Shown: positions 289 to 15,335, counted from the first letter of the stretch. The stretch is DNA of 49,463 bases from an uncultured Methanosarcinales archaeon (GCA_964467845.1 CAYXTQ010000001.1:1-49463), one strand, 5' to 3'. Made by a program: numbers and translations. Notes: generated by a model not told the origin, from the letters alone.

Positions 289-1353
289 TTAATAACTTAA
301 TTTATACCTCAACAAAGCCCCCACACCACCTAAGCCATCAAGCTTCTTGCCAGCATCATTATCAGAAGAGATTATATTTATCTCCCCTTTCATAGATTCT
401 ACTAAATTCAGTATTTGATCTATCTCCTCATATCTCTCTTCTTTTTTTTTTTTTTTTATAAAATAATCAGTTATTAATAAAATTCTTACCGCTCCAGCAT
501 TTACTGCGTTTTTCACCTCCTCAAAACCATAAACCGCTGCTCCATTTTTAGAGATTTCACCCAATAACTCATCTACTAATATAAGCTCTCTTGAAATTCT
601 GCTTTTTTTTAAAGCTTCTTTTAGCTCAGGCCTCTTTAATATTTCATTTATGGCAGTTCTATCAACAGATGAGCATGTTGCTAGTAAAATTTTTTTTTTT
701 AAATCTTCATCTTTTATGTTTTTCAATAGTTCTTCTTTCCAAAAAGATGTGCTTGCTAGTATAATCTGCCCAATTTCATATACTCTTATATATTCATTAA
801 GTGTTTTGATTATATCATTATAGAATGTGCTTTCTATCTTTTCTTTATCTTTTTTTTTCTGAACCCTTCCTTTAATATGAGACAGCAGCTTATAACCTTG
901 CTTTTTTAATAAAGCAAAATATGCCTCTTCCCTGTCTAAAACACAAATTAATATATTTGCTATTTTTTCTTGTGTTGCCTCTTTTAATTTATCCAATTGA
1001 AATTTCAGCCATTTTTTCTTGATTAGAGTTATAGTAGCATTATCATCAATATCAAAAGTATGGTAGCTGCCCCTTGGAACGTCATCCGGCCCTTCCTTGA
1101 TAACTCCAGAAACCCTCAGATCGTTAGAATATTTGTGAAATTTTATTTTTTCTACTTGTATTATAAGAAAAACCTCCCTTTTTGTTACTCTCTGTGCTCT
1201 CTCTTCTGCTTTGCTTACCTTGATTTTTCTTAAAGTTTTGCCTTTAATCAAATCATCCTTGTCAATTATATGACTCAAATACCATAAATCATCTAGATTC
1301 TCTGTTTTAATCTTTATTTCTCCCTTTCTTAAATCAGAATAAACAAGTTTCAT
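289..1353 (-). CDS. pelA: Pelota/Dom34 ribosome-rescue (no-go decay) factor
   Basis: 354-aa ORF. The N-terminus (MKLVYSDLRKGEIKIKTENLDDLWYLSHII) and the eRF1-like C-terminal domain (GGVGALLRY) are typical of archaeal Pelota. It contains an in-frame T16 run (442-457) encoding KKKKK. Confidence 0.85.
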   Translation of the reverse strand: MKLVYSDLRKGEIKIKTENLDDLWYLSHIIDKDDLIKGKTLRKIKVSKAEERAQRVTKREVFLIIQVEKIKFHKYSNDLRVSGVIKEGPDDVPRGSYHTFDIDDNATITLIKKKWLKFQLDKLKEATQEKIANILICVLDREEAYFALLKKQGYKLLSHIKGRVQKKKDKEKIESTFYNDIIKTLNEYIRVYEIGQIILASTSFWKEELLKNIKDEDLKKKILLATCSSVDRTAINEILKRPELKEALKKSRISRELILVDELLGEISKNGAAVYGFEEVKNAVNAGAVRILLITDYFIKKKKKEERYEEIDQILNLVESMKGEINIISSDNDAGKKLDGLGGVGALLRYKLSY

Positions 1354-1432: not shown

Positions 1433-2623
1433 ATGAAAAAAAAAAAGAGGGGTCAAGAGCATCTCGAAGGTGGTAGAGCAGCAGGAGTTATTGGGTTAAT
1501 AATTGTTGTAATTGTTCTTTATATAATCCTTTTACCTCCTGAAGAAAGGGATGAACTGTTAGGAGAAGAGGATAGCGGAGTAACTCCTAGTGAAAAAGAA
1601 ACAAACCTTACCTTATTATCAGAAAATCCTGGCACAATATCATTTATAGGTCAAAAAGATGCAGATAAAACCATACCTAATATTTATTTGTACAAGGATA
1701 CTAATGCTCAGGTTATTGAAAAGTTTAATGATTTCTATACTAGAAACGGATATTTTGATAAGATAAAGAAAAACTTAACTTTTAGTATAAAGGATTTAGA
1801 GAATACTGATAATGTGATGTTGTCTTTTACTACAACAAAAAATACAGGTGTTCTAACAATAAAGCTTAATGATGAAATAATTTACGAGTATGATATCAAC
1901 ACATTAAATGTTAATCCGATTGAATTGAAAAAAAGTTCTTTGAAACAAAACAACGTATTAGAGTTTAGTGTAAGTAGTATTGGCTGGGGGTTTTGGAAAA
2001 CTAATGAATACTCATTTGAAAATTTGAAAGTAATAGGAGATATAACTGATGTTACAAGACAAAAAAGCAGAAATGTTTTTACATTAACTGAAGCAGAATA
2101 TCAAAATATTGACAAAGCAGAACTGAAGTTTGTGCCTTATTGTAAATATGAAAGAGATGTTGGTGTATTGGAAGCATTCATCAATAACAGAAATATATAT
2201 TCAGCTATACCCGTTTGTGATGATCCTGTAAAACAGCCATTTTCAATTGATATATTAAATTCTGGAGAGAATAACATTGTTTTTAAATCAACTAAAGGCA
2301 GTTATAGTATTGAGCAGATAAGGTTAGAGTTAGATTTAAAAGAAACTCAAAAGATAATTTATTATTTTGAATTGAATGAAAGCCAGTTCAAAAATATAAG
2401 CAGTGAAGGAAAAAGAGTTAGGTTGTATATTACATTTGTAGATGATGATGAGGAAAAGAAGTTAGATTTGAGCATTAATGGTCATCTTACTAGTATAAGA
2501 CAAGATGAATCAAAGTATAAAAAAGACATTACTCATTGGGTTGAAGAAGGCAATAACTATATTGAACTAAGACCAAAAACAACATTGTACATAGTAAAAT
2601 TAGAAATTAAGTACGAAGATTAA
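1433..2623 (+). CDS. N-terminally membrane-anchored secreted protein with three tandem ~100-aa beta-sandwich-like repeats; function unknown
   Basis: The track start at 1424 is GTG, while the ATG at 1433 lies 7 nt after a GGTGA SD. MKKKKRGQEHLE is followed by the hydrophobic GVIGLIIVVIVLYIILL. Three repeats show the pattern L-x-[IL]-x-[IL]-N-x-x-x-[IL]-Y ... G-x-N-x-[IV]-x-[FL] ... Y-x-[IF]-x-x-[IL]. Confidence 0.7.
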   Translation: MKKKKRGQEHLEGGRAAGVIGLIIVVIVLYIILLPPEERDELLGEEDSGVTPSEKETNLTLLSENPGTISFIGQKDADKTIPNIYLYKDTNAQVIEKFNDFYTRNGYFDKIKKNLTFSIKDLENTDNVMLSFTTTKNTGVLTIKLNDEIIYEYDINTLNVNPIELKKSSLKQNNVLEFSVSSIGWGFWKTNEYSFENLKVIGDITDVTRQKSRNVFTLTEAEYQNIDKAELKFVPYCKYERDVGVLEAFINNRNIYSAIPVCDDPVKQPFSIDILNSGENNIVFKSTKGSYSIEQIRLELDLKETQKIIYYFELNESQFKNISSEGKRVRLYITFVDDDEEKKLDLSINGHLTSIRQDESKYKKDITHWVEEGNNYIELRPKTTLYIVKLEIKYED

Positions 2624-2699
2624 TATTAAAAAGAGGTGTTTACACAAAGACTTCTTGGGGTATTATTTAGTAGAATAAAATCCATAAAAGAGGTTTAGT

Positions 2700-5600
2700 A
2701 TGGCTGAAAGAAGTGTTGATGAAGAAGCAAAAAGGATAGCAAGAATATTAGAAAAAAGAGGTTTTGCTCCAGATAAAATAAAAAAAAAAGTTGATGAGTA
2801 TAAAAATAGGCCTAAAGAAGATATTTCTGTAATCCGGAAATCTAATGAAAGTTTAGATAATTGGAAAAAAAGATTACTTAAAAAATATGAAAAAGATACT
2901 AGCGGTAAGTTTGTAAGAAAACAACCTGCTCAAGTTATTCCAGGAATACAAAGATTAAGTCAAGAAGAAAAAAAACTTGACAAAGAAAAAAGAGAAACTG
3001 CTAAAGCACAACAAAAAACTGCAGTGATTCAAAAAAAGGTAGAATTAGAAAAAGAAAGGGGCTTACGTAATCCATTTTTAAAATTTGGTCAAAGATTAAA
3101 TAATATATCTCAAGAGCCAACCGGCAGATTAATGTTTTTCTTTGCAATAGTGTTATGGATATTTGATATGGCTCTTGGATTTAGTGGTATTAACTACGAA
3201 TTTTTTCTAAATATTTTTAGAAACCCTTCTTCTGCTGGAAGTTTAATAAGAATAGCATGGAATGTTATAACCTTATTTATCTTTGGATTTATAATCTGGA
3301 GAATTATCTTCAACCGACCAGAAAAAAATGAATTAATTGCTTTAGGTCTTATGCTAGAAACTTTCAATATTGTATTTTCCCTGGGCGGATTTAATCTCAT
3401 GTTGTTAGCTCATTTAGTATTTTCAACATGTTTTTTATTATTTGTATTACTTCCTTATTACACATACCAAGGGAAAAAGCAGTTAGCTTATTGGTATACT
3501 ATGGGTTTCATAATTATTGATTTCTTCTTATTTCCGTATCTCAGTTATTATTATACTAAAACATCTAATATTAGGGGCGCATTCCCTGTTTGGGTTGTTA
3601 TTACTTTATATTATACTTTAAAGCTAAAAAGATCTCGCTTATTGGGTTTTGTTTCATTTTTTTTGATTATGTTTTATCTTTTTGCTTTCGCACAACCTTT
3701 GTTTGGTGGATTAGATGTGGGCTTAGCAGGAATGCAAACAGAAAATATGGGATTTAAAGCTATTGGAGGTATAGGAGCAAAAGCGTTTGCTAATGCTAAA
3801 CTTGCTTTTAAAAATGTTGGGAAAGGAATACAAGAATCTTACAATGAATCAATCTCTTATGCTACAGGAGACTATTATACTGGTAGAGTTGATCGTAACG
3901 TTAAAGAACCATTAGGAGTTTACATAACTAATATTGAAACTGCTGATCCTGAAGTCTATGAGGATGAAGCAATAGAAATTTGGGCTATTTTAAGAGCTAA
4001 GAGTATTGAAGAACCTATAGATTCAATTAAAGTACAATGTATAGCAGATAAAGATACTATAAAAGAAAAACCAGGTAAATCAAAAGTATCAGAATTCAAT
4101 AATTTTATTGATGAAGAAGAAGACATAGATTGCAAATTTGAAGAAAATGATTTAGAGGCAGGTTCTCATCTAATAACATTTACAGCTGAATTTGACTTTA
4201 CAACATTAGCTTATCTAAAAACCTATTTTATTGATGATGAAAGATTAAAGGCTTTAAAGAGAGAGGGTATTGATGTTTTTAAAGAGTATGGCATTACAGA
4301 TAAAAATCCGATAGCAGTTTATACAAACGGGCCTGTTGGCATTGGAATGGAAACGAAAACACCCCCAATAGGCATAAGCAAAGATTACGACAGTACACCA
4401 AAATTCGGCATAACAATAGAAAACAAATGGAAAGGAAAAATTACTGAAATAAAGGATTTAATTATCTATTTGCCAGAAGGTATCGAACTAGATGATAACT
4501 GTGATGAAGCATTTGAAAAAATCGAGACAAGAGAATACATTTTAGATGGTTATACTGCTTATAAAATGATTGATGCTGTAAAAGAATCAAAAGAATGGAA
4601 AGATATAGAACTTTACAAATCTCGCAATTGCAGATTGAACATAAAAGATAGAAACAAAATACTTGGAGACACACCAATTTCTACAAAATATATAAAAGCA
4701 AGAATAAAATATGTCTATAACTCACAAGAATCTATTAACATAAATGTTCAAACTCCAAAGGGTTTTAATGTTTATTTTGAACCTAAAAAACCATCAATGA
4801 AAGATGAAATAAAGTGTGTTGCTTCTCATAGTGATGCATATGTTATAATGGCTCCATTTTATATCTATAAAGAGAAAGAAGGATATGTTGACGAAGAAGA
4901 AAGATGGGATGAAATCGTAAATATAGAGGTAGAGTGTGGCAGCAAAGAAAATAAATGCGAGTATCCCATTCCTAAAGCTGGGCTTAAGAGAGGAGATAAG
5001 ATAAAATGTAAGGTATATAAAGCAAAATTATCTAATAATGTAGAAGAAACAGATAGTGCTGTTGTTGAAATACAAAACTCTGCTCCAGAAATAACTGCTT
5101 TTTTTGAACCAAAAAATGCTCCAGCTGATAAAGACTTAAAATGTGTTGGAGTAATAAAAGATGCTGATGGAGATAATGAATTCAAAATGATTTATGAAGT
5201 TAAAAATAATAATGAAAGACTAAGCTATGACAAACTAGAAACCAAGTGGATTAATAATCAATTTGAAATATTAATTAAAAAAGAAAATTTCAAGGAAGGA
5301 GACAAAACAGAATGCAAGATGACTGTAAAGGATATCCCAAGTAAGGGTGAAAGCAAGTATAGTGAACCTAAAGAGATAACAATAATTATAGGAAAATCAA
5401 CTGAAACAACTACCACAGGAAGTGGTGGAACTGGTACTAGTAGTAATCTTTATGCTGATTGTAATTTAGAAGAAAATCATGGACATGCATGTAGAGGTAG
5501 TACAAAGAGAAATTGTTATTATTATAAGGATAAAAAAATAGGTGAATGTCTAACAGAGTGCGAGTTCCTTGGAAAAACAGGAACACACCCTAAAATAAAA

Positions 5601-5738
5601 GATAGCTGGAAATGTGCATGTAATAAAGCTTCTTGGAAAGAACAATGTGAAGATGAAAGCTTCTTGACATGTGTTACTGGACATTGTCCTGAAGATATGA
5701 ATATGTACTGTTGTGATATGGTGGGATTGTTAGGATAA
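2700..5738 (+). CDS. Large polytopic membrane protein: Lys-rich cytoplasmic N-terminus, ~7-8 TM helices, ectodomain homologous to the three downstream lipoproteins, two FEPK..KCV repeats, Thr/Gly linker, 12-Cys C-terminal tail
   Basis: 1012-aa ORF with a GAGGT SD 7 nt upstream. The hydrophobic block covers about residues 145-340 (nt ~3130-3720). The shared module covers about residues 395-685. The repeats are YFEPKKPSMKDEIKCV and FFEPKNAPADKDLKCV. The linker is STETTTTGSGGTGTSS, and the last ~90 residues hold 12 Cys. Confidence 0.8.
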   Translation: MAERSVDEEAKRIARILEKRGFAPDKIKKKVDEYKNRPKEDISVIRKSNESLDNWKKRLLKKYEKDTSGKFVRKQPAQVIPGIQRLSQEEKKLDKEKRETAKAQQKTAVIQKKVELEKERGLRNPFLKFGQRLNNISQEPTGRLMFFFAIVLWIFDMALGFSGINYEFFLNIFRNPSSAGSLIRIAWNVITLFIFGFIIWRIIFNRPEKNELIALGLMLETFNIVFSLGGFNLMLLAHLVFSTCFLLFVLLPYYTYQGKKQLAYWYTMGFIIIDFFLFPYLSYYYTKTSNIRGAFPVWVVITLYYTLKLKRSRLLGFVSFFLIMFYLFAFAQPLFGGLDVGLAGMQTENMGFKAIGGIGAKAFANAKLAFKNVGKGIQESYNESISYATGDYYTGRVDRNVKEPLGVYITNIETADPEVYEDEAIEIWAILRAKSIEEPIDSIKVQCIADKDTIKEKPGKSKVSEFNNFIDEEEDIDCKFEENDLEAGSHLITFTAEFDFTTLAYLKTYFIDDERLKALKREGIDVFKEYGITDKNPIAVYTNGPVGIGMETKTPPIGISKDYDSTPKFGITIENKWKGKITEIKDLIIYLPEGIELDDNCDEAFEKIETREYILDGYTAYKMIDAVKESKEWKDIELYKSRNCRLNIKDRNKILGDTPISTKYIKARIKYVYNSQESININVQTPKGFNVYFEPKKPSMKDEIKCVASHSDAYVIMAPFYIYKEKEGYVDEEERWDEIVNIEVECGSKENKCEYPIPKAGLKRGDKIKCKVYKAKLSNNVEETDSAVVEIQNSAPEITAFFEPKNAPADKDLKCVGVIKDADGDNEFKMIYEVKNNNERLSYDKLETKWINNQFEILIKKENFKEGDKTECKMTVKDIPSKGESKYSEPKEITIIIGKSTETTTTGSGGTGTSSNLYADCNLEENHGHACRGSTKRNCYYYKDKKIGECLTECEFLGKTGTHPKIKDSWKCACNKASWKEQCEDESFLTCVTGHCPEDMNMYCCDMVGLLG

Positions 5739-5743
5739 TAAAA

Positions 5744-6670
5744 ATGCAAAAAAAAATATTACTATTGATTTTAATCATAATTTTTATCTCAGGTTGTGAT
5801 AGGTTTTCTCCTAATAAAGGGTCTATAAGTGATGTTAATGTTCACACAGGAACCTCTGCCTTAGAGATGGAATTTCTAAAAGACAGTCCGCCAAACGATA
5901 TTTATGAAGACCAAACTTTTAAAGCAGCTGTTTTATTACAAAATAAAGGTGCTTTTGACATAAAAAAAGGTTATCTGTTAATAGGTGTAGAGGAAGATTA
6001 CATGGAACTTTTATATGAAAGATATGGCAAAAAAATAGATTTACAATTAGAAGGAAAATCTATTAAAAACCCCGTAGGAGAAGAAAAAATAGAGGAATTT
6101 GTACTAAAAGCAAAAAAAATAGATCCTCAAACCCAGGAACACGATAGTTCAATTTATATAACATCATGTTATGAGTACAGAACAGAGTTATCTGAAACAG
6201 TATGCATAGATACTGATGTTTATAATGTAAAACCTATGGAAAAAGTATGCACAGTAAAGGATATTTCACTTATCTCACAGGGTGCTCCTGTTGCAGTTAC
6301 AAAAATTGAAGAAAGGATTTCTTCAAGTGAGAACGGAGAAATTATAATCCCTGAATTTACAGTATACATTGACAATAAAGGTAAAGGTGAGGTAATAGAC
6401 ATTAGTAAAATAGATGATGTTTGCTCTTCAAAGTCTTTAAATAGCGAGGATATAAACAAATTAAAGATAGAAGCTTACTTATCTGGCATTCCATTAGAAT
6501 GTAATCCTAATGAATTAAAGTTAAAAAAGAAGCAAGATAAAGTAATTTGTTCTTTAAAGGAAGGTGTTAAAAAGGATGAGCCTGCTTTTACAACTTTGTT
6601 ATCAGTAGTACTAAATTATGGTTATACCCAAACAATATCTAAAAAGATTACAATAAAAAAAAGTTATTAA
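5744..6670 (+). CDS. Predicted lipoprotein, paralog 1 of the two-domain surface module
   Basis: 308 aa. The signal peptide is MQKKILLLILIIIFISGC with lipobox ISGC. It shares the ordered motifs GTSALEMEFLKDSPPNDIY, QNKG, SCYEYRTELSETVCID, QGAPVAVTKIE, IDNKGKG and LNYGYTQ with paralogs 2 and 3. Confidence 0.8.
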   Translation: MQKKILLLILIIIFISGCDRFSPNKGSISDVNVHTGTSALEMEFLKDSPPNDIYEDQTFKAAVLLQNKGAFDIKKGYLLIGVEEDYMELLYERYGKKIDLQLEGKSIKNPVGEEKIEEFVLKAKKIDPQTQEHDSSIYITSCYEYRTELSETVCIDTDVYNVKPMEKVCTVKDISLISQGAPVAVTKIEERISSSENGEIIIPEFTVYIDNKGKGEVIDISKIDDVCSSKSLNSEDINKLKIEAYLSGIPLECNPNELKLKKKQDKVICSLKEGVKKDEPAFTTLLSVVLNYGYTQTISKKITIKKSY

Positions 6671-6689
6671 TCCGAAAAATTTAAATAGA

Positions 6690-7673
6690 ATGTTACTTAA
6701 TAAACCCATTATGAAAGAAACGAAGAAATTTGTATTCTTAATTTGCTTTTTTTTAATTATATTATTTATCACAAGCTGTACTCCTCGAGGCTATAATCCT
6801 GAAGTTAAAGAAACATATTTTATTGGAACAGAAGGTTTATTTATGAGATTTATAAAGAACGCCCCGCCTTATAAAGTATATGTAGGAGATAAAATAGATA
6901 TTACAGTTGAATTGTGGAACAGAGGCGCATGGCCTGATAGTGACGTTTTTGAAGGTTTCTTGGTAATAAGTGGTTTTGATTTGAGTGCTATAAATGGTGT
7001 TTGGGAGAAAGGTAATGCAGTATCTGTCTTAATACCTGCAAATTTGCAAGGTAAAAGTCAATTTAATCCTGAAGGTGGTTATGCTACACTAACATACGAG
7101 GATATAGACGGCGTAACTGTGCCTTTTGATGCTGATAGATATCCAGCAGAGATTTTAGTTACATCTTGCTATAGGTATAAAACATTCGCCAGACCAAGAA
7201 TCTGTATTGATCCTGACCCATATTCAATTGTTGCAGAAGACAAAGTCTGTCATGTAGATGATGAAGGAGAAATATCTGTTGAAGCTGGTGGCCAGGGTGC
7301 TCCAATAGCTGTGACAAGTGTTAGACAAGAAGTTGGTGCTGATAGAATCTACTTTAGGATATATGTCTCAAATGTTGGTGGTGGCCGAGTTATAGAACCT
7401 AATGCCTATAACTTTTGTCCTTTTGATTTAGAGAATGATGAAATTAATAAAGTATATGCAACAGTAACTCTACCCCATGATTCAAATCCTGTATGCACAC
7501 CAAGAGGAGATCCTTCTGATCCTATAAGACTGCAAGATGGCCGCGGCTATATGTTCTGTAGTTTTACCCTACCATCTACTGGCACTGCTTATTGGTCCCA
7601 ATTACACATAATCCTAGATTATGTTTATTCTTCATCTATTAAGACAAGAGTAGATGTCGTAAATCTTAGATAA
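6690..7673 (+). CDS. Predicted lipoprotein, paralog 2 of the two-domain surface module
   Basis: 327 aa. The hydrophobic signal ends in lipobox ITSC. Motifs are GTEGLFMRFIKNAPPYKVY, WNRG, SCYRYKTFARPRICID, QGAPIAVTSVRQE, VSNVGGG and LDYVYSS. An alternative ATG at 6720 (MKETKKF) is possible. Confidence 0.8.
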   Translation: MLLNKPIMKETKKFVFLICFFLIILFITSCTPRGYNPEVKETYFIGTEGLFMRFIKNAPPYKVYVGDKIDITVELWNRGAWPDSDVFEGFLVISGFDLSAINGVWEKGNAVSVLIPANLQGKSQFNPEGGYATLTYEDIDGVTVPFDADRYPAEILVTSCYRYKTFARPRICIDPDPYSIVAEDKVCHVDDEGEISVEAGGQGAPIAVTSVRQEVGADRIYFRIYVSNVGGGRVIEPNAYNFCPFDLENDEINKVYATVTLPHDSNPVCTPRGDPSDPIRLQDGRGYMFCSFTLPSTGTAYWSQLHIILDYVYSSSIKTRVDVVNLR

Positions 7674-7727
7674 ATGTGCTTCTATAAAGCAAAAGATTTA
7701 TACAATGAAAATCATAGATACGAGAAA

Positions 7728-7758
7728 ATCTTCGAAAATGCCTTACATTTTCGTAAGA
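7728..7758. other. Hairpin (CGAAAATG-CCTTA-CATTTTCG core, extendable to ~13 bp with one bulge) between lipoprotein paralogs 2 and 3
   Basis: Read directly. It is preceded by AGATACGAGAAAATC (7716-7730), which is identical to 44242-44256. Confidence 0.6.
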
Positions 7759-7825
7759 TTTATATATATTTAAAATTAATATATAGACAATTTACTTAAA
7801 AAAAAAAAAAAATGGAGGAATAAAA

Positions 7826-8803
7826 ATGAAAAAAGTTTTGATTTTGATTGGTTTATTATTATTTATAGTTGGTTGCGCTGAAGAGAAAGGAAAAGATGTT
7901 GGACCAAAAGAAACCCCTTTTGTTGGAGGTAAAACAGCTTTGGCTATGTCTTTTATAGAAGGTGCCCCTCCAGATGAAATTTTTGACAATGGACAATATC
8001 CTTTCTCTATTATCATAAAATTGGATAATAAAGGTGAAGATGACATTAGTGCTGGAGAAGGTTATATAAAAATAGTCGGTATTAATCCAACAGATTTTGG
8101 TAAAACGTCTGCTGACTTAAAACAAGATATTCCAGAAGATATTAAAGGAACAAGAAAAAATGCTGAAGGCGATATTGTTAATGGAGATACTATTATTATG
8201 GAATTTAATGATTTTAACTATTTGCCTGATGTGCAAGGTAACTTTGATGGTCCTAGAATAAGGCCAGAATTATGCTATGACTATGAAACAAAAACCTCTA
8301 CGCAAATTTGTGTTAAAAGTGATTTACTGCATGACTTTGAAACAAAAGAAATATGCAGTGTTAGTGGTGATAAAATAACCTATAACTCTGGTAGCCCAAT
8401 GCAGATAACAGAGTTCAAAGAAGCTCCTTTAGGCTCTGATAAAATACAAGTTAGTTTTAAGATAGAACACGTTGGTGATATTAATGACAGGTTCTTTAAG
8501 CAAGGAACAGAATGCAATTATAAAGTAACCAACCTTGATAAAAATAAGGTGTGGGTTGAAGTAACCTCCGACATTAACGGCAAGAAAGCTTCATGCTCTG
8601 GTTTACAAGAAGCTACTGCAGATAATTCTGCTGGTTATGTAACTTTATGGGACATGAAACCAAGAACAGTTGTTTGCAGCGTAGATATTGGTGATGTAGA
8701 AGGCATCTTTGAAGAATTATTTACAGTCAGCTTAAAGTATAGATATATGCAGTTTATAGAAAAGGGTATTTTAGTTAAGGATGTTTCTGCAGGCACAGAA
8801 TAG
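7826..8803 (+). CDS. Predicted lipoprotein, paralog 3 of the two-domain surface module
   Basis: 325 aa. The signal is MKKVLILIGLLLFIVGC with lipobox IVGC, and a GGAGG SD lies 8 nt upstream. Motifs are GKTALAMSFIEGAPPDEIF, DNKG, LCYDYETKTSTQICV, SGSPMQITEFKE, IEHVGD and LKYRYMQ. Confidence 0.8.
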   Translation: MKKVLILIGLLLFIVGCAEEKGKDVGPKETPFVGGKTALAMSFIEGAPPDEIFDNGQYPFSIIIKLDNKGEDDISAGEGYIKIVGINPTDFGKTSADLKQDIPEDIKGTRKNAEGDIVNGDTIIMEFNDFNYLPDVQGNFDGPRIRPELCYDYETKTSTQICVKSDLLHDFETKEICSVSGDKITYNSGSPMQITEFKEAPLGSDKIQVSFKIEHVGDINDRFFKQGTECNYKVTNLDKNKVWVEVTSDINGKKASCSGLQEATADNSAGYVTLWDMKPRTVVCSVDIGDVEGIFEELFTVSLKYRYMQFIEKGILVKDVSAGTE

Positions 8804-12697: not shown

Positions 12698-13774
12698 ATG
12701 GATATTCAATCTAGATTAAATTTAATAAAAGAGGTTGGGGAAGAGATTATAACAGAACAAGAACTAAAAACATTGTTAGAAACTAAATCTAAGCCTGTTG
12801 CATATGATGGTTTTGAGCCTTCAGGATATTCTGTCCATATTGCGCAGGGCCTTCTTCGTGCTATAACTGTGAATAAGATGCTCAAGGCAGGTGTCAAATT
12901 TGTTATGTATGCTGCTGATTGGCATGGATGGGCAAATCTAAAGTTGGGTGGAGATTTAGACAAAATCCATATCGCTGGAGATTATCTTGTTGAGATTTGG
13001 AAAGCCTGTGGTATGGATACTGAGAATGTAAAGATGATCAGGGCTACTGATATAGTATATAAAAAAAGTTACTGGAAAACTGTAGTGAGGATTGCTCAAG
13101 CTGCAACTCTAAAAAGATTGGTTCGTTGTTCTCAGATAATGGGAAGAAAAGAGAGTGACACTTTATCAGGATCGCAGATAATTTATCCATGTATGCAAGC
13201 AGCTGATGTTTATGAGATTGGAGCAGATATAACTTCTTTAGGAATAGACCAAAAAAAAGTATATGTATTATGTAGAGAAATTGCACCAAAACTTGGATTA
13301 TGGAAACCTGTTATAGTAAGCCACCATATGTTAATGGGTTTATTAGAACCACCCAAGGATGTGAAGGATCCTGTTGAAAGGGCTATAGCTATGAAAATGT
13401 CAAAATCTATGCCTGATTCCGCAATATTTATGACAGATAGTCAGGAAGATATAAAGAGGAAAATTAACAAAGCTTTCTGTCCTGAAGGAGTAGCTGATGA
13501 AAACCCCATCTTAGAATACTGTAAATACATTATTTTTGAGAAATTTAAAGAATTCAAAGTTGAAAGACCAGCTAAATTTGGTGGAGATATTAGCTTCGGA
13601 AGTTATGATGAGTTAGAAAAATCGTTTATTAAAAAGGAGCTTCATCCTATGGATCTTAAACAAGCAACTGCTAATTATATTAATCAACTTCTTTCTCCTG
13701 TGAGAAAACATTTCGAAACAGGAAAAGCAAAGAAATTATTAGAACAGGTAAGAAGCTTTAAAATTACAAGGTAG
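12698..13774 (+). CDS. tyrS: Tyrosyl-tRNA synthetase (archaeal type)
   Basis: 358 aa with a HIGH-like motif (EPSGYSVHIAQG) and KMSKS. The C-terminal RPAKFGGDISFGSYDELEKSFIKKELHPMDLK closely resembles M. jannaschii TyrS from memory. Confidence 0.9.
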   Translation: MDIQSRLNLIKEVGEEIITEQELKTLLETKSKPVAYDGFEPSGYSVHIAQGLLRAITVNKMLKAGVKFVMYAADWHGWANLKLGGDLDKIHIAGDYLVEIWKACGMDTENVKMIRATDIVYKKSYWKTVVRIAQAATLKRLVRCSQIMGRKESDTLSGSQIIYPCMQAADVYEIGADITSLGIDQKKVYVLCREIAPKLGLWKPVIVSHHMLMGLLEPPKDVKDPVERAIAMKMSKSMPDSAIFMTDSQEDIKRKINKAFCPEGVADENPILEYCKYIIFEKFKEFKVERPAKFGGDISFGSYDELEKSFIKKELHPMDLKQATANYINQLLSPVRKHFETGKAKKLLEQVRSFKITR

Positions 13775-15335
13775 GTTGTAATTTAAGATTTATCGGAATT
13801 CCTTTAGAAAAATCCAGACTATTTATTCTTTCATTCTTTATTTTTAAAATTAGATTCTCTTTCTTAAACAAAAAATTCCAAGCTTCTTCTTTAGAACATA
13901 AAGATTCAACCCACTTTGGCATAAACGGTTGATATTTACCATTATTTATTGGATATTGCTTCTCCAATGCTTTGATTTTAGTTTTAAAGTCTGCCTTAAT
14001 TGCTAAATTTCTTATCTCTTTTTGTAGTGGATGACAACTTCTGTATTCACCATATTTTCTTGAAGTTATTTTTTTCATCATATTTATGAACTTATGAACT
14101 TTATCAGGCCTTATACTGTTTTCTGCAGCTTTAATGAAAAATTCAAGTTGTTGTACTATTTGTTTAGAACCATAATTCTCTGATAAGTGATTTAAGGAGC
14201 CAGGGGCAAATCTAATCCTGTATAAATATCTACTTTTACTTTTAGAATATGAAACATAGTTTCTTTTGCCTTGCATGGTTGATGTAGGAATTAGATTTAA
14301 GACATTAACAAATGCAGAGTAATCTATGTTTGGTGATGTTGCCAAATCTATTATTGGTGATGGCTTGAAACTGTATGTGCCATCTCCATCAAATACTCCT
14401 TGAAAATACTCCTGAGTTGAGTCTAATTCTCTCAAGAAGTTATAAGGAATACTCTTTTTATATCCAGAGGTAAGGGATTTATTTATTTTTTGTACAAGAT
14501 CCTTCTCTTTCAGTTTATTCATAAAGACTGGTGAAACTGAAGAAATATTGGTTTTAAATACTGTTTTGTTGGATTTTTTGTCTAGTACAACGTAAGTGTT
14601 ACTTATCTTTTTTTTATTTTTGAAAATAGGAAATACTCTCTGAATGAATTGAGGGTACCAATACCCCTGAAAAATGTCTGAACTTCCTACTTGATAAGTG
14701 AATGAAAAATCACTACCATTATTCCTTAAATGACCGTCTGAAAGAAATAAACCTAAAAAATATAAATTATGCTTCGAGAATGAAAAAACATCCTTTTCAT
14801 ATATTATAGGCAAATTTTTGTTAGTCTTCCAGCTTCTTATTCCTCTTTCATTTATATCTATCTTGTTATAAAGTGAGGATGTTAGTAAACCATATTTGTG
14901 AGAATTATCTAAATGGTGCTTTAACTCATTCCAGTACTTATCATAAACATACGCATTTCCTTTTGGATGTGTAACCCAAAACGAAGGTACTGGACATCCT
15001 TCAATCTTAATTCGATTTAAGTTACAAAGAGGACAAAAATAAGAGAATCCGTGCTTACACCCATTTCCACTATGTCTCGTTGTATTAAAATTTTCAACAA
15101 TAATTGGTTTTCTGACTCCACTGAGCCAACCTTGGATCGCTCTTTGACTAATTTTGTTATCTGTAATCTTTGAAATGTACTTGGATAGGTCGCTCTTTGT
15201 TCGAAATCTCTTATCTTTAAGTTGTTTTTGTATGAATTTCCAAAATGATTTTGATAAGGCATAATATTTCTTGCCTTTTCCTCCATGAAGTACTCTAAGT
15301 TCTGGGTATGTGTTTTTTAAATGATGCGATGTCAT
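13764..15335 (-). CDS. Free-standing double-motif LAGLIDADG homing-endonuclease-like protein with an N-terminal HTH-like/Cys-rich extension
   Basis: 523 aa with two LAGLIDADG motifs (LGLFLSDGHL and FQGVFDGDGTY). The N-terminus repeats ISQRAIQGWLSGVRKPI and ERGIRSWKTNKNLPI and has a Cys cluster CKHGFSYFCPLCN. It overlaps the tyrS 3' end by 11 nt in convergent orientation. Confidence 0.75.
   Translation of the reverse strand: MTSHHLKNTYPELRVLHGGKGKKYYALSKSFWKFIQKQLKDKRFRTKSDLSKYISKITDNKISQRAIQGWLSGVRKPIIVENFNTTRHSGNGCKHGFSYFCPLCNLNRIKIEGCPVPSFWVTHPKGNAYVYDKYWNELKHHLDNSHKYGLLTSSLYNKIDINERGIRSWKTNKNLPIIYEKDVFSFSKHNLYFLGLFLSDGHLRNNGSDFSFTYQVGSSDIFQGYWYPQFIQRVFPIFKNKKKISNTYVVLDKKSNKTVFKTNISSVSPVFMNKLKEKDLVQKINKSLTSGYKKSIPYNFLRELDSTQEYFQGVFDGDGTYSFKPSPIIDLATSPNIDYSAFVNVLNLIPTSTMQGKRNYVSYSKSKSRYLYRIRFAPGSLNHLSENYGSKQIVQQLEFFIKAAENSIRPDKVHKFINMMKKITSRKYGEYRSCHPLQKEIRNLAIKADFKTKIKALEKQYPINNGKYQPFMPKWVESLCSKEEAWNFLFKKENLILKIKNERINSLDFSKGIPINLKLQPTL

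Follow-up and report, generated by a model that had tools for sequence, protein, structure and literature searches.

The closest described counterparts of the system reported here are large SLT proteins of Woesearchaeota and Pacearchaeota, for which binding to, or attack on, the bacterial wall has been proposed (PMC8204110; Vigneron et al. 2022, PMC9723730); PMC11537232 and PMC12352652 likewise mention large SLT proteins from these archaea and propose a bacterial-wall role. Additionally, archaeal peptidoglycan hydrolases have been found to kill bacteria, and Nanoarchaeota were revealed to be especially rich in such enzymes, which are also especially diverse there (PMC12352652). Here we describe a five-gene cluster (g1 to g5, positions 1433-8803) on an archaeal contig of 49.5 kb and ~30% GC (GCA_964467845.1, CAYXTQ010000001.1:1-49463; the whole of this stretch, which is the complete NCBI record, is called the window below). 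We found that g2 encodes a membrane-rooted scaffold, some of whose homologues bear one of several murein hydrolases at the distal end, and that SLT-bearing proteins include one variant of this far larger scaffold family. Its gene always stands together with those of four other surface proteins in a fixed operon, and the enzyme tip is exchangeable and absent in this genome. The module is uncharacterised, and it is a multi-component variant built around a protein class noticed before.

The SLT/GH23 proteins of PMC8204110 and PMC9723730 agree in lineage and in proposed wall role with the SLT-bearing g2 homologues of two related loci, L001 and L008, and with 34/125 sampled representatives of the g2 family; as far as the available parts of these two papers go, they give the domain match and not the core of transmembrane (TM) region and two sandwiches, the interchange of six enzyme families or the five-gene cluster. 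In the same way, the enzymes of PMC12352652 belong to the same kind of Pfam hydrolase families as the g2 tips; the main text of that paper does not contain the word 'transmembrane', whereas the hydrolases described here are optional tips on a scaffold that is rooted in the membrane and encoded with four partner proteins. Unlike the published SLT proteins, g2 of the window has no SLT domain. A literature search returned no account of the g2 core, of swapping at its tip or of the five-gene operon. Few uncultured archaea are as widespread as Woesearchaeota and Pacearchaeota, and 'large SLT-domain proteins' have so far been the sole molecular hint of how they might attach.

A wall-cutting domain that acts locally as part of a larger machine is also known from phage virion-associated lysins and from specialised lytic transglycosylases that serve bacterial secretion or flagellar machines. 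These systems and the g2 family are alike in the free swapping of SLT, M23, NlpC/P60, amidase and glucosaminidase modules; they differ in that the g2 scaffold has no sequence or fold kinship with them and stands in an archaeal context with lipid-anchored partners. The bacterial beta-barrel assembly machinery (BAM) combines an integral membrane core with several lipoproteins that act together. Its likeness to the present module would be an architectural analogy only, with no homology and no outer membrane here.

The cluster consists of five co-oriented open reading frames (ORFs) on the + strand. The coordinates from ORF calling (1433-2623, 2700-5738, 5744-6670, 6690-7673 and 7826-8803) and the intergenic gaps from g1 to g5 (76, 5, 19 and 152 nt) matched exactly those given in a preliminary description of the locus. 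Shine-Dalgarno (SD)-like sites, which that description had placed before g1, g2 and g5, were located as GGTGA, GAGGT and GGAGGA, respectively. The parts of the cluster are as follows.

1433..2623, + strand: g1, 396 amino acids (aa); an NCBI gene call has equal length, and the gene is first in the cluster in 8 loci.
2700..3119, + strand: g2 head, residues 1-140, Lys/Arg-rich and lineage-variable (39 K+R vs 23 D+E).
3120..3716, + strand: g2 membrane domain, residues ~141-339, with ~7 TM helices predicted from hydropathy and from the helices of the AlphaFold2 (AF2) model (predicted local distance difference test, pLDDT, ~50-70).
3852..4769, + strand: g2 ectodomain, residues ~385-690, with two predicted beta-sandwiches (~406-512 and 546-684) and 4 conserved Cys (AF2 pLDDT ~90).
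4752..5393, + strand: g2 distal part, residues 685-898, with two FEPK...KC repeats (repeat 1 vs repeat 2, blastp E 6e-6).
5394..5738, + strand: g2 Thr/Gly linker (899-918) and 94-aa terminal domain with 12 Cys (919-1012), from a sequence count.
5744..6670, + strand: g3, 308-aa lipobox lipoprotein (ISGC) with two predicted beta-sandwich domains and six conserved Cys, and with its own ortholog in each related locus.
6690..7673, + strand: g4, 327-aa lipobox lipoprotein (ITSC) with two predicted beta-sandwich domains (AF2 pLDDT 90.3).
7726..7761, + strand: hairpin with a 15-bp stem in the g4-g5 spacer (spacer fold z = -4.1 vs shuffles; a pattern scan recovers the same stem).
7826..8803, + strand: g5, 325-aa lipobox lipoprotein (IVGC), the most divergent paralog.

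A profile of the g2 core (TM region and ectodomain; A4) revealed 1380 representatives at 50% identity, 844 of them at E <= 1e-30, and g2 of the window (P0121), the second gene of the cluster, matched the family profile at E 4e-166. Lengths ranged from 324 to 1470 aa among the 150 representatives listed. The protein ended no more than 30 residues past the ectodomain in 44/161 members and had a tail of >100 aa in 104, and 72 of these 104 long tails contained at least six Cys. As evident from Pfam searches on the 125 best-scoring matches, the family carries SLT (34), Peptidase_M23 (4), NlpC/P60 (2), Amidase_2 (2), Amidase_3 (1) and Glucosaminidase (2) domains, which places a peptidoglycan hydrolase in up to 45/125 sampled members. 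In particular, L001 and L008 contained an SLT domain (E 6e-12 and 5.5e-9, respectively) and L011 a Glucosaminidase (GH73) domain (E 6e-15). The hydrolase was found C-terminal to the core in these three members, which were the ones checked, and all three lie within intact five-gene clusters; the SLT-bearing proteins here match the g2 core at E <= 1e-100. That six murein-specific enzyme families with no relation to one another occur on a single scaffold implies that the distal end of g2 would meet bacterial peptidoglycan, and this guilt-by-fusion, read from domain arrangement, is a strong indication that the distal end engages murein. Host contact had been suggested in the preliminary description, and the hydrolase fusions on g2 homologues speak independently for this idea; its interpretation as a whole was supported in part. 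We also observed tips other than hydrolases (P0140 and others), among them beta/gamma-crystallin, PKD, fn3 and purple-acid-phosphatase-N-like domains; the majority of long tails are Cys-rich and unassigned.

Conservation of g2 among orthologs was confined to its membrane domain and two-sandwich ectodomain, and heads and tails varied. The head was short or missing in most orthologs and is presumably cytoplasmic by the positive-inside rule. Within the membrane domain, only D156 and P296-x-W298 were moderately conserved across 134 family members, and the juxtamembrane motif ATGDYYTGxVD was strongly conserved. The distal part of the window protein occupies the lineage-variable 'tip' position, where homologues have peptidoglycan hydrolases, and its FEPK repeats were common only to P0122 and P0123 among g2 homologues. 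The K/R-rich head, the ~7 TM helices, the two FEPK repeats, the Thr/Gly linker and the 12-Cys tail had all been proposed earlier, and each was recovered. No peptidoglycan hydrolase domain was detected in the window protein by Pfam, and the FEPK repeats and the Cys tail had no PDB or Pfam match. Foldseek searches with the g2 model against PDB and BFVD revealed generic tandem immunoglobulin (Ig)-like matches with a TM-score of ~0.1-0.25. Matches to the AglB/STT3 structures 2zai and 3vu1 (TM-score 0.17-0.25) probably reflect only the beta-rich domains of the models, and this identity was ruled out because g2 has no WWDYG motif (no WWD or W[WY]D[YFW]G) and no Pfam STT3 match. By eye, the terminal C-P-x-[DN]-x-Y-C-C-S looked hevein-like, and the Pfam chitin-binding models did not match it. 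In the closest g2 homologues, P0122 and P0123, the heads showed by eye a GIG...-type motif resembling helix-hairpin-helix, without a Pfam match; the Lys-rich head of the window protein does not have this motif.

A gene-neighbourhood comparison, which had been put forward in the preliminary description, revealed that the order g1-g2-g3-g4-g5 was kept in every related locus with enough flank (9/9: L001, L006, L007, L008, L011, L012, L013, L014 and a 292-kb JGI contig, where the order was judged by gene size and position only). With tblastn, each window gene had its own best ortholog in the eight loci with DNA. Two further loci, L009 and L010, contained the same lipoprotein run interrupted by contig ends. 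The cluster was flanked by pelota and RFC-PRC in the five loci with gene calls, and start and stop codons overlapped in some loci. Ortholog identities fell to 25-35%, which indicates that the triplication and the cluster are old. A long synteny block (window 289-1353 to 20157) was also found in comparison with L001, L008, L013 and L014, in the order TrmB, pelota, the five genes, RFC, PRC-barrel, (Cas4-like), class I (Trp/Tyr-type) tRNA synthetase, and peptidases or AAA ATPase; the stability of this block is unusual for genomes so divergent. Some Woesearchaeota genomes, represented by L013 (5626-6732) and L014 (5571-6718), have two extra small, unassigned minus-strand genes (~210 and 155-170 aa) between pelota and g1, which are absent in the window.

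In the g4-g5 spacer, the hairpin is followed on its 3' side by an A/T-rich TATA-like stretch and then by the g5 SD site GGAGGA. The hairpin may be a terminator or processing site accompanied by an internal g5 promoter; hairpin and A/T-rich box together point to g1-g4 plus g5 as a possible separate readout. The stop codon of g5 is followed on its 3' side by a poly-T tract. A sigma-70 promoter scan was uninformative, as the organism is an archaeon. In the closest relative, L003, the g4-g5 spacer was only 74 nt long.

The three lipobox paralogs that had been claimed for the locus proved highly significant in pairwise BLASTP, with E values of 4e-32, 5e-11 and 3e-13 among g3, g4 and g5. The g4 query revealed 143 relatives, all of them unnamed or 'hypothetical' and none with a Pfam domain; where the sources were named, they were metagenome-assembled genomes (MAGs) of Woesearchaeota or Nanoarchaeota. 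All three proteins have the signal features of lipobox lipoproteins, namely a positive n-region, a hydrophobic core and a lipobox. The lipobox Cys was invariant in a 34-sequence alignment of the family, and the pattern [LVI][ASTVI][GAS]C was strict in 80/123 family members and relaxed in 33 more. From these features, g3-g5 would be lipid-modified; the lipidation enzyme AliA and many predicted lipobox lipoproteins have been reported for DPANN archaea (PMC12462473). Six further Cys were invariant or nearly so in the same alignment, and exactly six was the modal count (87/119 members), as had been described. The ordered motifs listed earlier for the three proteins also corresponded to the consensus of this alignment (GTxGLxMxFxxNAPP, NKG, CYxYxT..VCID, GGQGAPVAVT, NVGxG and LxYxY).

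In the AF2 model of g4, a signal helix is joined by a short, disordered linker to two beta-sandwich domains. Foldseek searches with this model against PDB and BFVD revealed only generic tandem Ig-like matches with a TM-score of ~0.2, which included integrin legs, complement MG domains, Vps26, CFA/I pilins and a DUF11 protein, the last being the best BFVD match. Pfam, NCBIfam and PDB profile searches returned nothing for the lipoproteins. An identity as ABC substrate-binding lipoproteins was excluded, as there was no profile match, the model is an all-beta sandwich and the cluster has no ABC genes. An Ig/CARDB-like module had been guessed. The fold class of this guess is borne out by the integrin legs, MG domains and DUF11 protein matched by the AF2 model in Foldseek, and the family is not, since the Pfam models of CARDB (PF07705), DUF11 and S-layer proteins had no match at E <= 1 for the five proteins or their relatives. 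CARDB/DUF11 Ig-like domains and archaeal S-layer proteins are similar to the module in having beta-sandwiches with strand-end N-x-G motifs; they differ in that the TM-score is only ~0.2 and the module is lipobox-anchored and nearly sequon-free.

The preliminary description had also equated residues ~395-685 of g2 with the lipoprotein module. The AF2 models show a common two-beta-sandwich architecture for g4 and the g2 ectodomain, the Foldseek match sets of the two models in PDB overlapped, and the profile alignment was collinear over ~260 columns and paired the predicted strands of the two models. The homology statistics, on the other hand, were marginal. BLASTP of the g2 ectodomain vs the lipoproteins gave only an 18-aa match at E ~0.1; hhalign gave E values of 0.013 and 0.0087 with small profiles and of 0.086 with a 155-sequence g2 profile, compared with 0.32 for a reversed control, so the larger profile weakened the link. 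In a hidden Markov model decoy test, 38% and 53% of members scored above the 95th percentile of their shuffled counterparts. Common descent of the g2 ectodomain and the lipoproteins is plausible but unproven.

The g1 protein, which had been described as anchored and made of three units, was found to contain one TM helix (~17-35), a conserved LPPEEReLLG motif and then three tandem ~95-aa repeats, supported by hhalign self-matches with P values of 9e-8 and 1.6e-5. Its N-terminus has a conserved M-[KR]-K-G-Q motif, in which G7 and Q8 were invariant in the g1 alignment (A5). The invariant K/R-G-Q resembles the class III signal of type IV pilins, but 3-12 polar residues precede the helix (EHLEGGRAAG in the window), and a FlaFind-type pattern fitted by eye only g1 of L012. 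No Pfam or PDB match was obtained for g1; the repeats gave weak hints of carbohydrate-binding module (CBM)-like Pfam families, all sub-threshold (E 0.0026-0.24). Kinship of g1 with the lipoprotein or g2 modules was rejected (hhalign E 0.21). In two g1 orthologs (L001:4877-6556 and L012:3751-5421), a Cys-rich insert of ~165 aa with repeated C-P..C...DCC motifs lies between repeats 2 and 3; g1 of the window has no such insert.

We found N-glycosylation sequons (N-X-S/T) to be depleted in the products of all five genes. Across 123 members of the lipoprotein family, 6 were observed vs 255 +/- 14 expected (~40-fold), and the control tripeptides Q-x-[ST], D-x-[ST] and N-x-[DE] were at expectation. 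The locus-derived g3, g4 and g5 orthologs had 1, 0 and 0 sequons vs 12, 11 and 17 expected, respectively. The depletion was weaker in g2 tails (64 vs 223), g1 (10 vs 30) and g2 ectodomains (181 vs 297), and was not seen in the cytoplasmic proteins of the window (17 vs 13.5 expected). Two other signal-peptide proteins of related loci were not depleted (10 vs 7.6 and 14 vs 7.7 expected) and two further exported controls were low (2 vs 6.7 and 1 vs 2.5 expected), which makes the exported control set small and mixed. As read from these counts, the depletion supports an extracytoplasmic location of the module and would imply that selection has kept these surfaces free of glycans, as expected where proteins bind each other or a ligand tightly. 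Being common to all five products, it links them and fits exposed, naked contact surfaces. Archaeal S-layer glycoproteins are typically N-glycosylated, and near-zero sequon counts are atypical of them. So extreme a purge of N-glycosylation sites marks the module in a way that is unusual and simple to verify.

Pfam and NCBIfam scans of the five proteins and of g1 and g2 family members revealed only sub-threshold noise, and PDB sequence and profile searches (A1, A4, A5, the Cys tail and the FEPK repeats) gave nothing under E 0.07. Profile and structure searches assigned none of the five proteins to a characterised family or system; the preliminary description, too, had been unable to place the module by eye. 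The outcomes named beforehand as grounds for giving up the preliminary description did not occur; no known system accounted for the proteins, the paralog alignment was significant and the genes were co-conserved. Its observations were therefore largely confirmed, and its interpretation was supported in part and sharpened by the tip fusions.

We tentatively favour, with somewhat less than even confidence, a membrane-rooted surface complex in which g2 is a spike with an exchangeable tip and g1 and g3-g5 form a base or collar, and which engages or cuts the bacterial wall in many lineages; the lipidation, the topology, the five-protein assembly and the target are what we infer. The module would be a lineage-specific surface apparatus of Woesearchaeota/Pacearchaeota-type DPANN archaea (Nanobdellota). 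The g2 spike would consist of a cytoplasmic head that varies among lineages, a membrane domain with several passes, a juxtamembrane helix, a pair of Ig-like beta-sandwiches and an exchangeable distal tip, which would be a murein hydrolase in about a third of the family representatives. In the window, the FEPK repeats would form the tip together with the flexible Thr/Gly linker and the 12-Cys knob; being non-enzymatic, this tip would bind rather than cut. The g3-g5 products would be anciently separated, disulfide-stapled, lipid-anchored two-sandwich proteins near the membrane, and g1 would be anchored by its N-terminal helix and carry three repeat domains. Together, g1 and g3-g5 would surround the g2 stalk as a base or collar on the outer membrane face, and the complex would bring the g2 tip to the wall of a bacterium that serves as partner or prey.

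Several points weigh against this spike-and-collar complex. The assembly of the five proteins is putative, g2 of the window has no hydrolase, and the hydrolase counts come from the 125 best-scoring matches with one hydrolase family assumed per protein. Furthermore, 27% of 161 g2 members are tail-less and about two thirds have no recognisable hydrolase, so the core function of g2 cannot be wall cutting itself. The housekeeping synteny (pelota, RFC, PRC and TyrRS) suits a core envelope role equally well, and the conserved multi-pass domain exceeds what an anchor needs. With regard to the host, we know of no identified host or attachment machinery for Woesearchaeota or Pacearchaeota.

A bolder form of the same proposal, which we consider possible though on the doubtful side, is that the complex is an undescribed attachment and wall-breaching organelle of Woesearchaeota and Pacearchaeota, with murein hydrolases, lectin-like domains or Cys-knob adhesins as tips and a glycan-free collar. 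If true, archaeon-bacterium episymbiosis or predation would take place physically through this organelle, and the wall chemistry of the partner would be reflected in the tip type. More generally, the tip type offers a marker locus to predict the kind of partner engaged by a lineage, and with the cluster described, a scattered annotation becomes a defined, testable five-component candidate for the cell-cell interface.

Among the alternatives, we regard as unlikely, though the least so, a general envelope scaffold in which the lipoproteins, g1 and the g2 ectodomain make up a membrane-proximal layer (S-layer-like or an S-layer anchor) essential to the lineage, with the hydrolase tips as opportunistic passengers. 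The apparently near lineage-wide conservation inside a housekeeping synteny block, the many tail-less g2 proteins, the tandem Ig-like domains, a fold class typical of archaeal surface-layer proteins, and the strong SD site and possible promoter of g5 itself are all consistent with such a layer. However, hitch-hiking does not readily explain how six murein-hydrolase families were gained repeatedly and independently at one position, sequons are purged in a way not typical of S-layers, and none of the five proteins had a significant match to a Pfam family, S-layer families included. In the g4 model, the stretch between the lipid Cys and the first domain is so short that it leaves no pseudo-periplasm. 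In addition, there are five components here, whereas archaeal S-layers are described as made of one or two proteins (PMC5744192).

Surface digestion or scavenging appears quite improbable; here, murein or other wall debris would be bound and degraded for nutrition, contact with a living host would not be needed, and the products would be handled by the g2 membrane domain or the lipoproteins. The frequency of hydrolase tips, the conserved polytopic domain with its membrane-embedded Asp and P-x-W motif, and the weak CBM-like hints in g1 would suit this role, but no transporter family was recognisable in the cluster, the lipoproteins do not have a substrate-binding-protein fold, and the window copy and most family members have no recognised hydrolase. 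That the five genes are mere neighbours, with g2 acting on its own as a surface enzyme or adhesin and with unrelated functions for g1 and the lipoproteins, is highly improbable given their order and adjacency in 9/9 informative loci across 25-50% identity, the overlapping start and stop codons of some loci and the sequon depletion common to all five products, even though interaction among the proteins is putative and the 152-nt spacer with its hairpin suggests at least two transcripts.

Elsewhere on the contig, we found housekeeping genes for pelota, RFC, PolD DP1/DP2, Cdc6, MCM, TldD/PmbA and FBPase, as well as a gene for a class I (Trp/Tyr-type) tRNA synthetase. The tRNA synthetase gene is followed by an ORF at 13764-15335 on the minus strand (523 aa), where syntenic loci hold peptidases, Dus or AAA ATPase. 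This ORF has no Pfam match at 1e-5; by eye, it shows two LAGLIDADG-like motifs, LYFLGLFLSDGHL and EYFQGVFDGDGTY, and it may be a free-standing homing-endonuclease-like gene. Finally, the MAGs of L003 and L008 are labelled 'uncultured Methanosarcinales archaeon', yet they contain the Woesearchaeota-type cluster and synteny, and the label is probably wrong; the g4 protein of L003 is 83% identical to that of the window.

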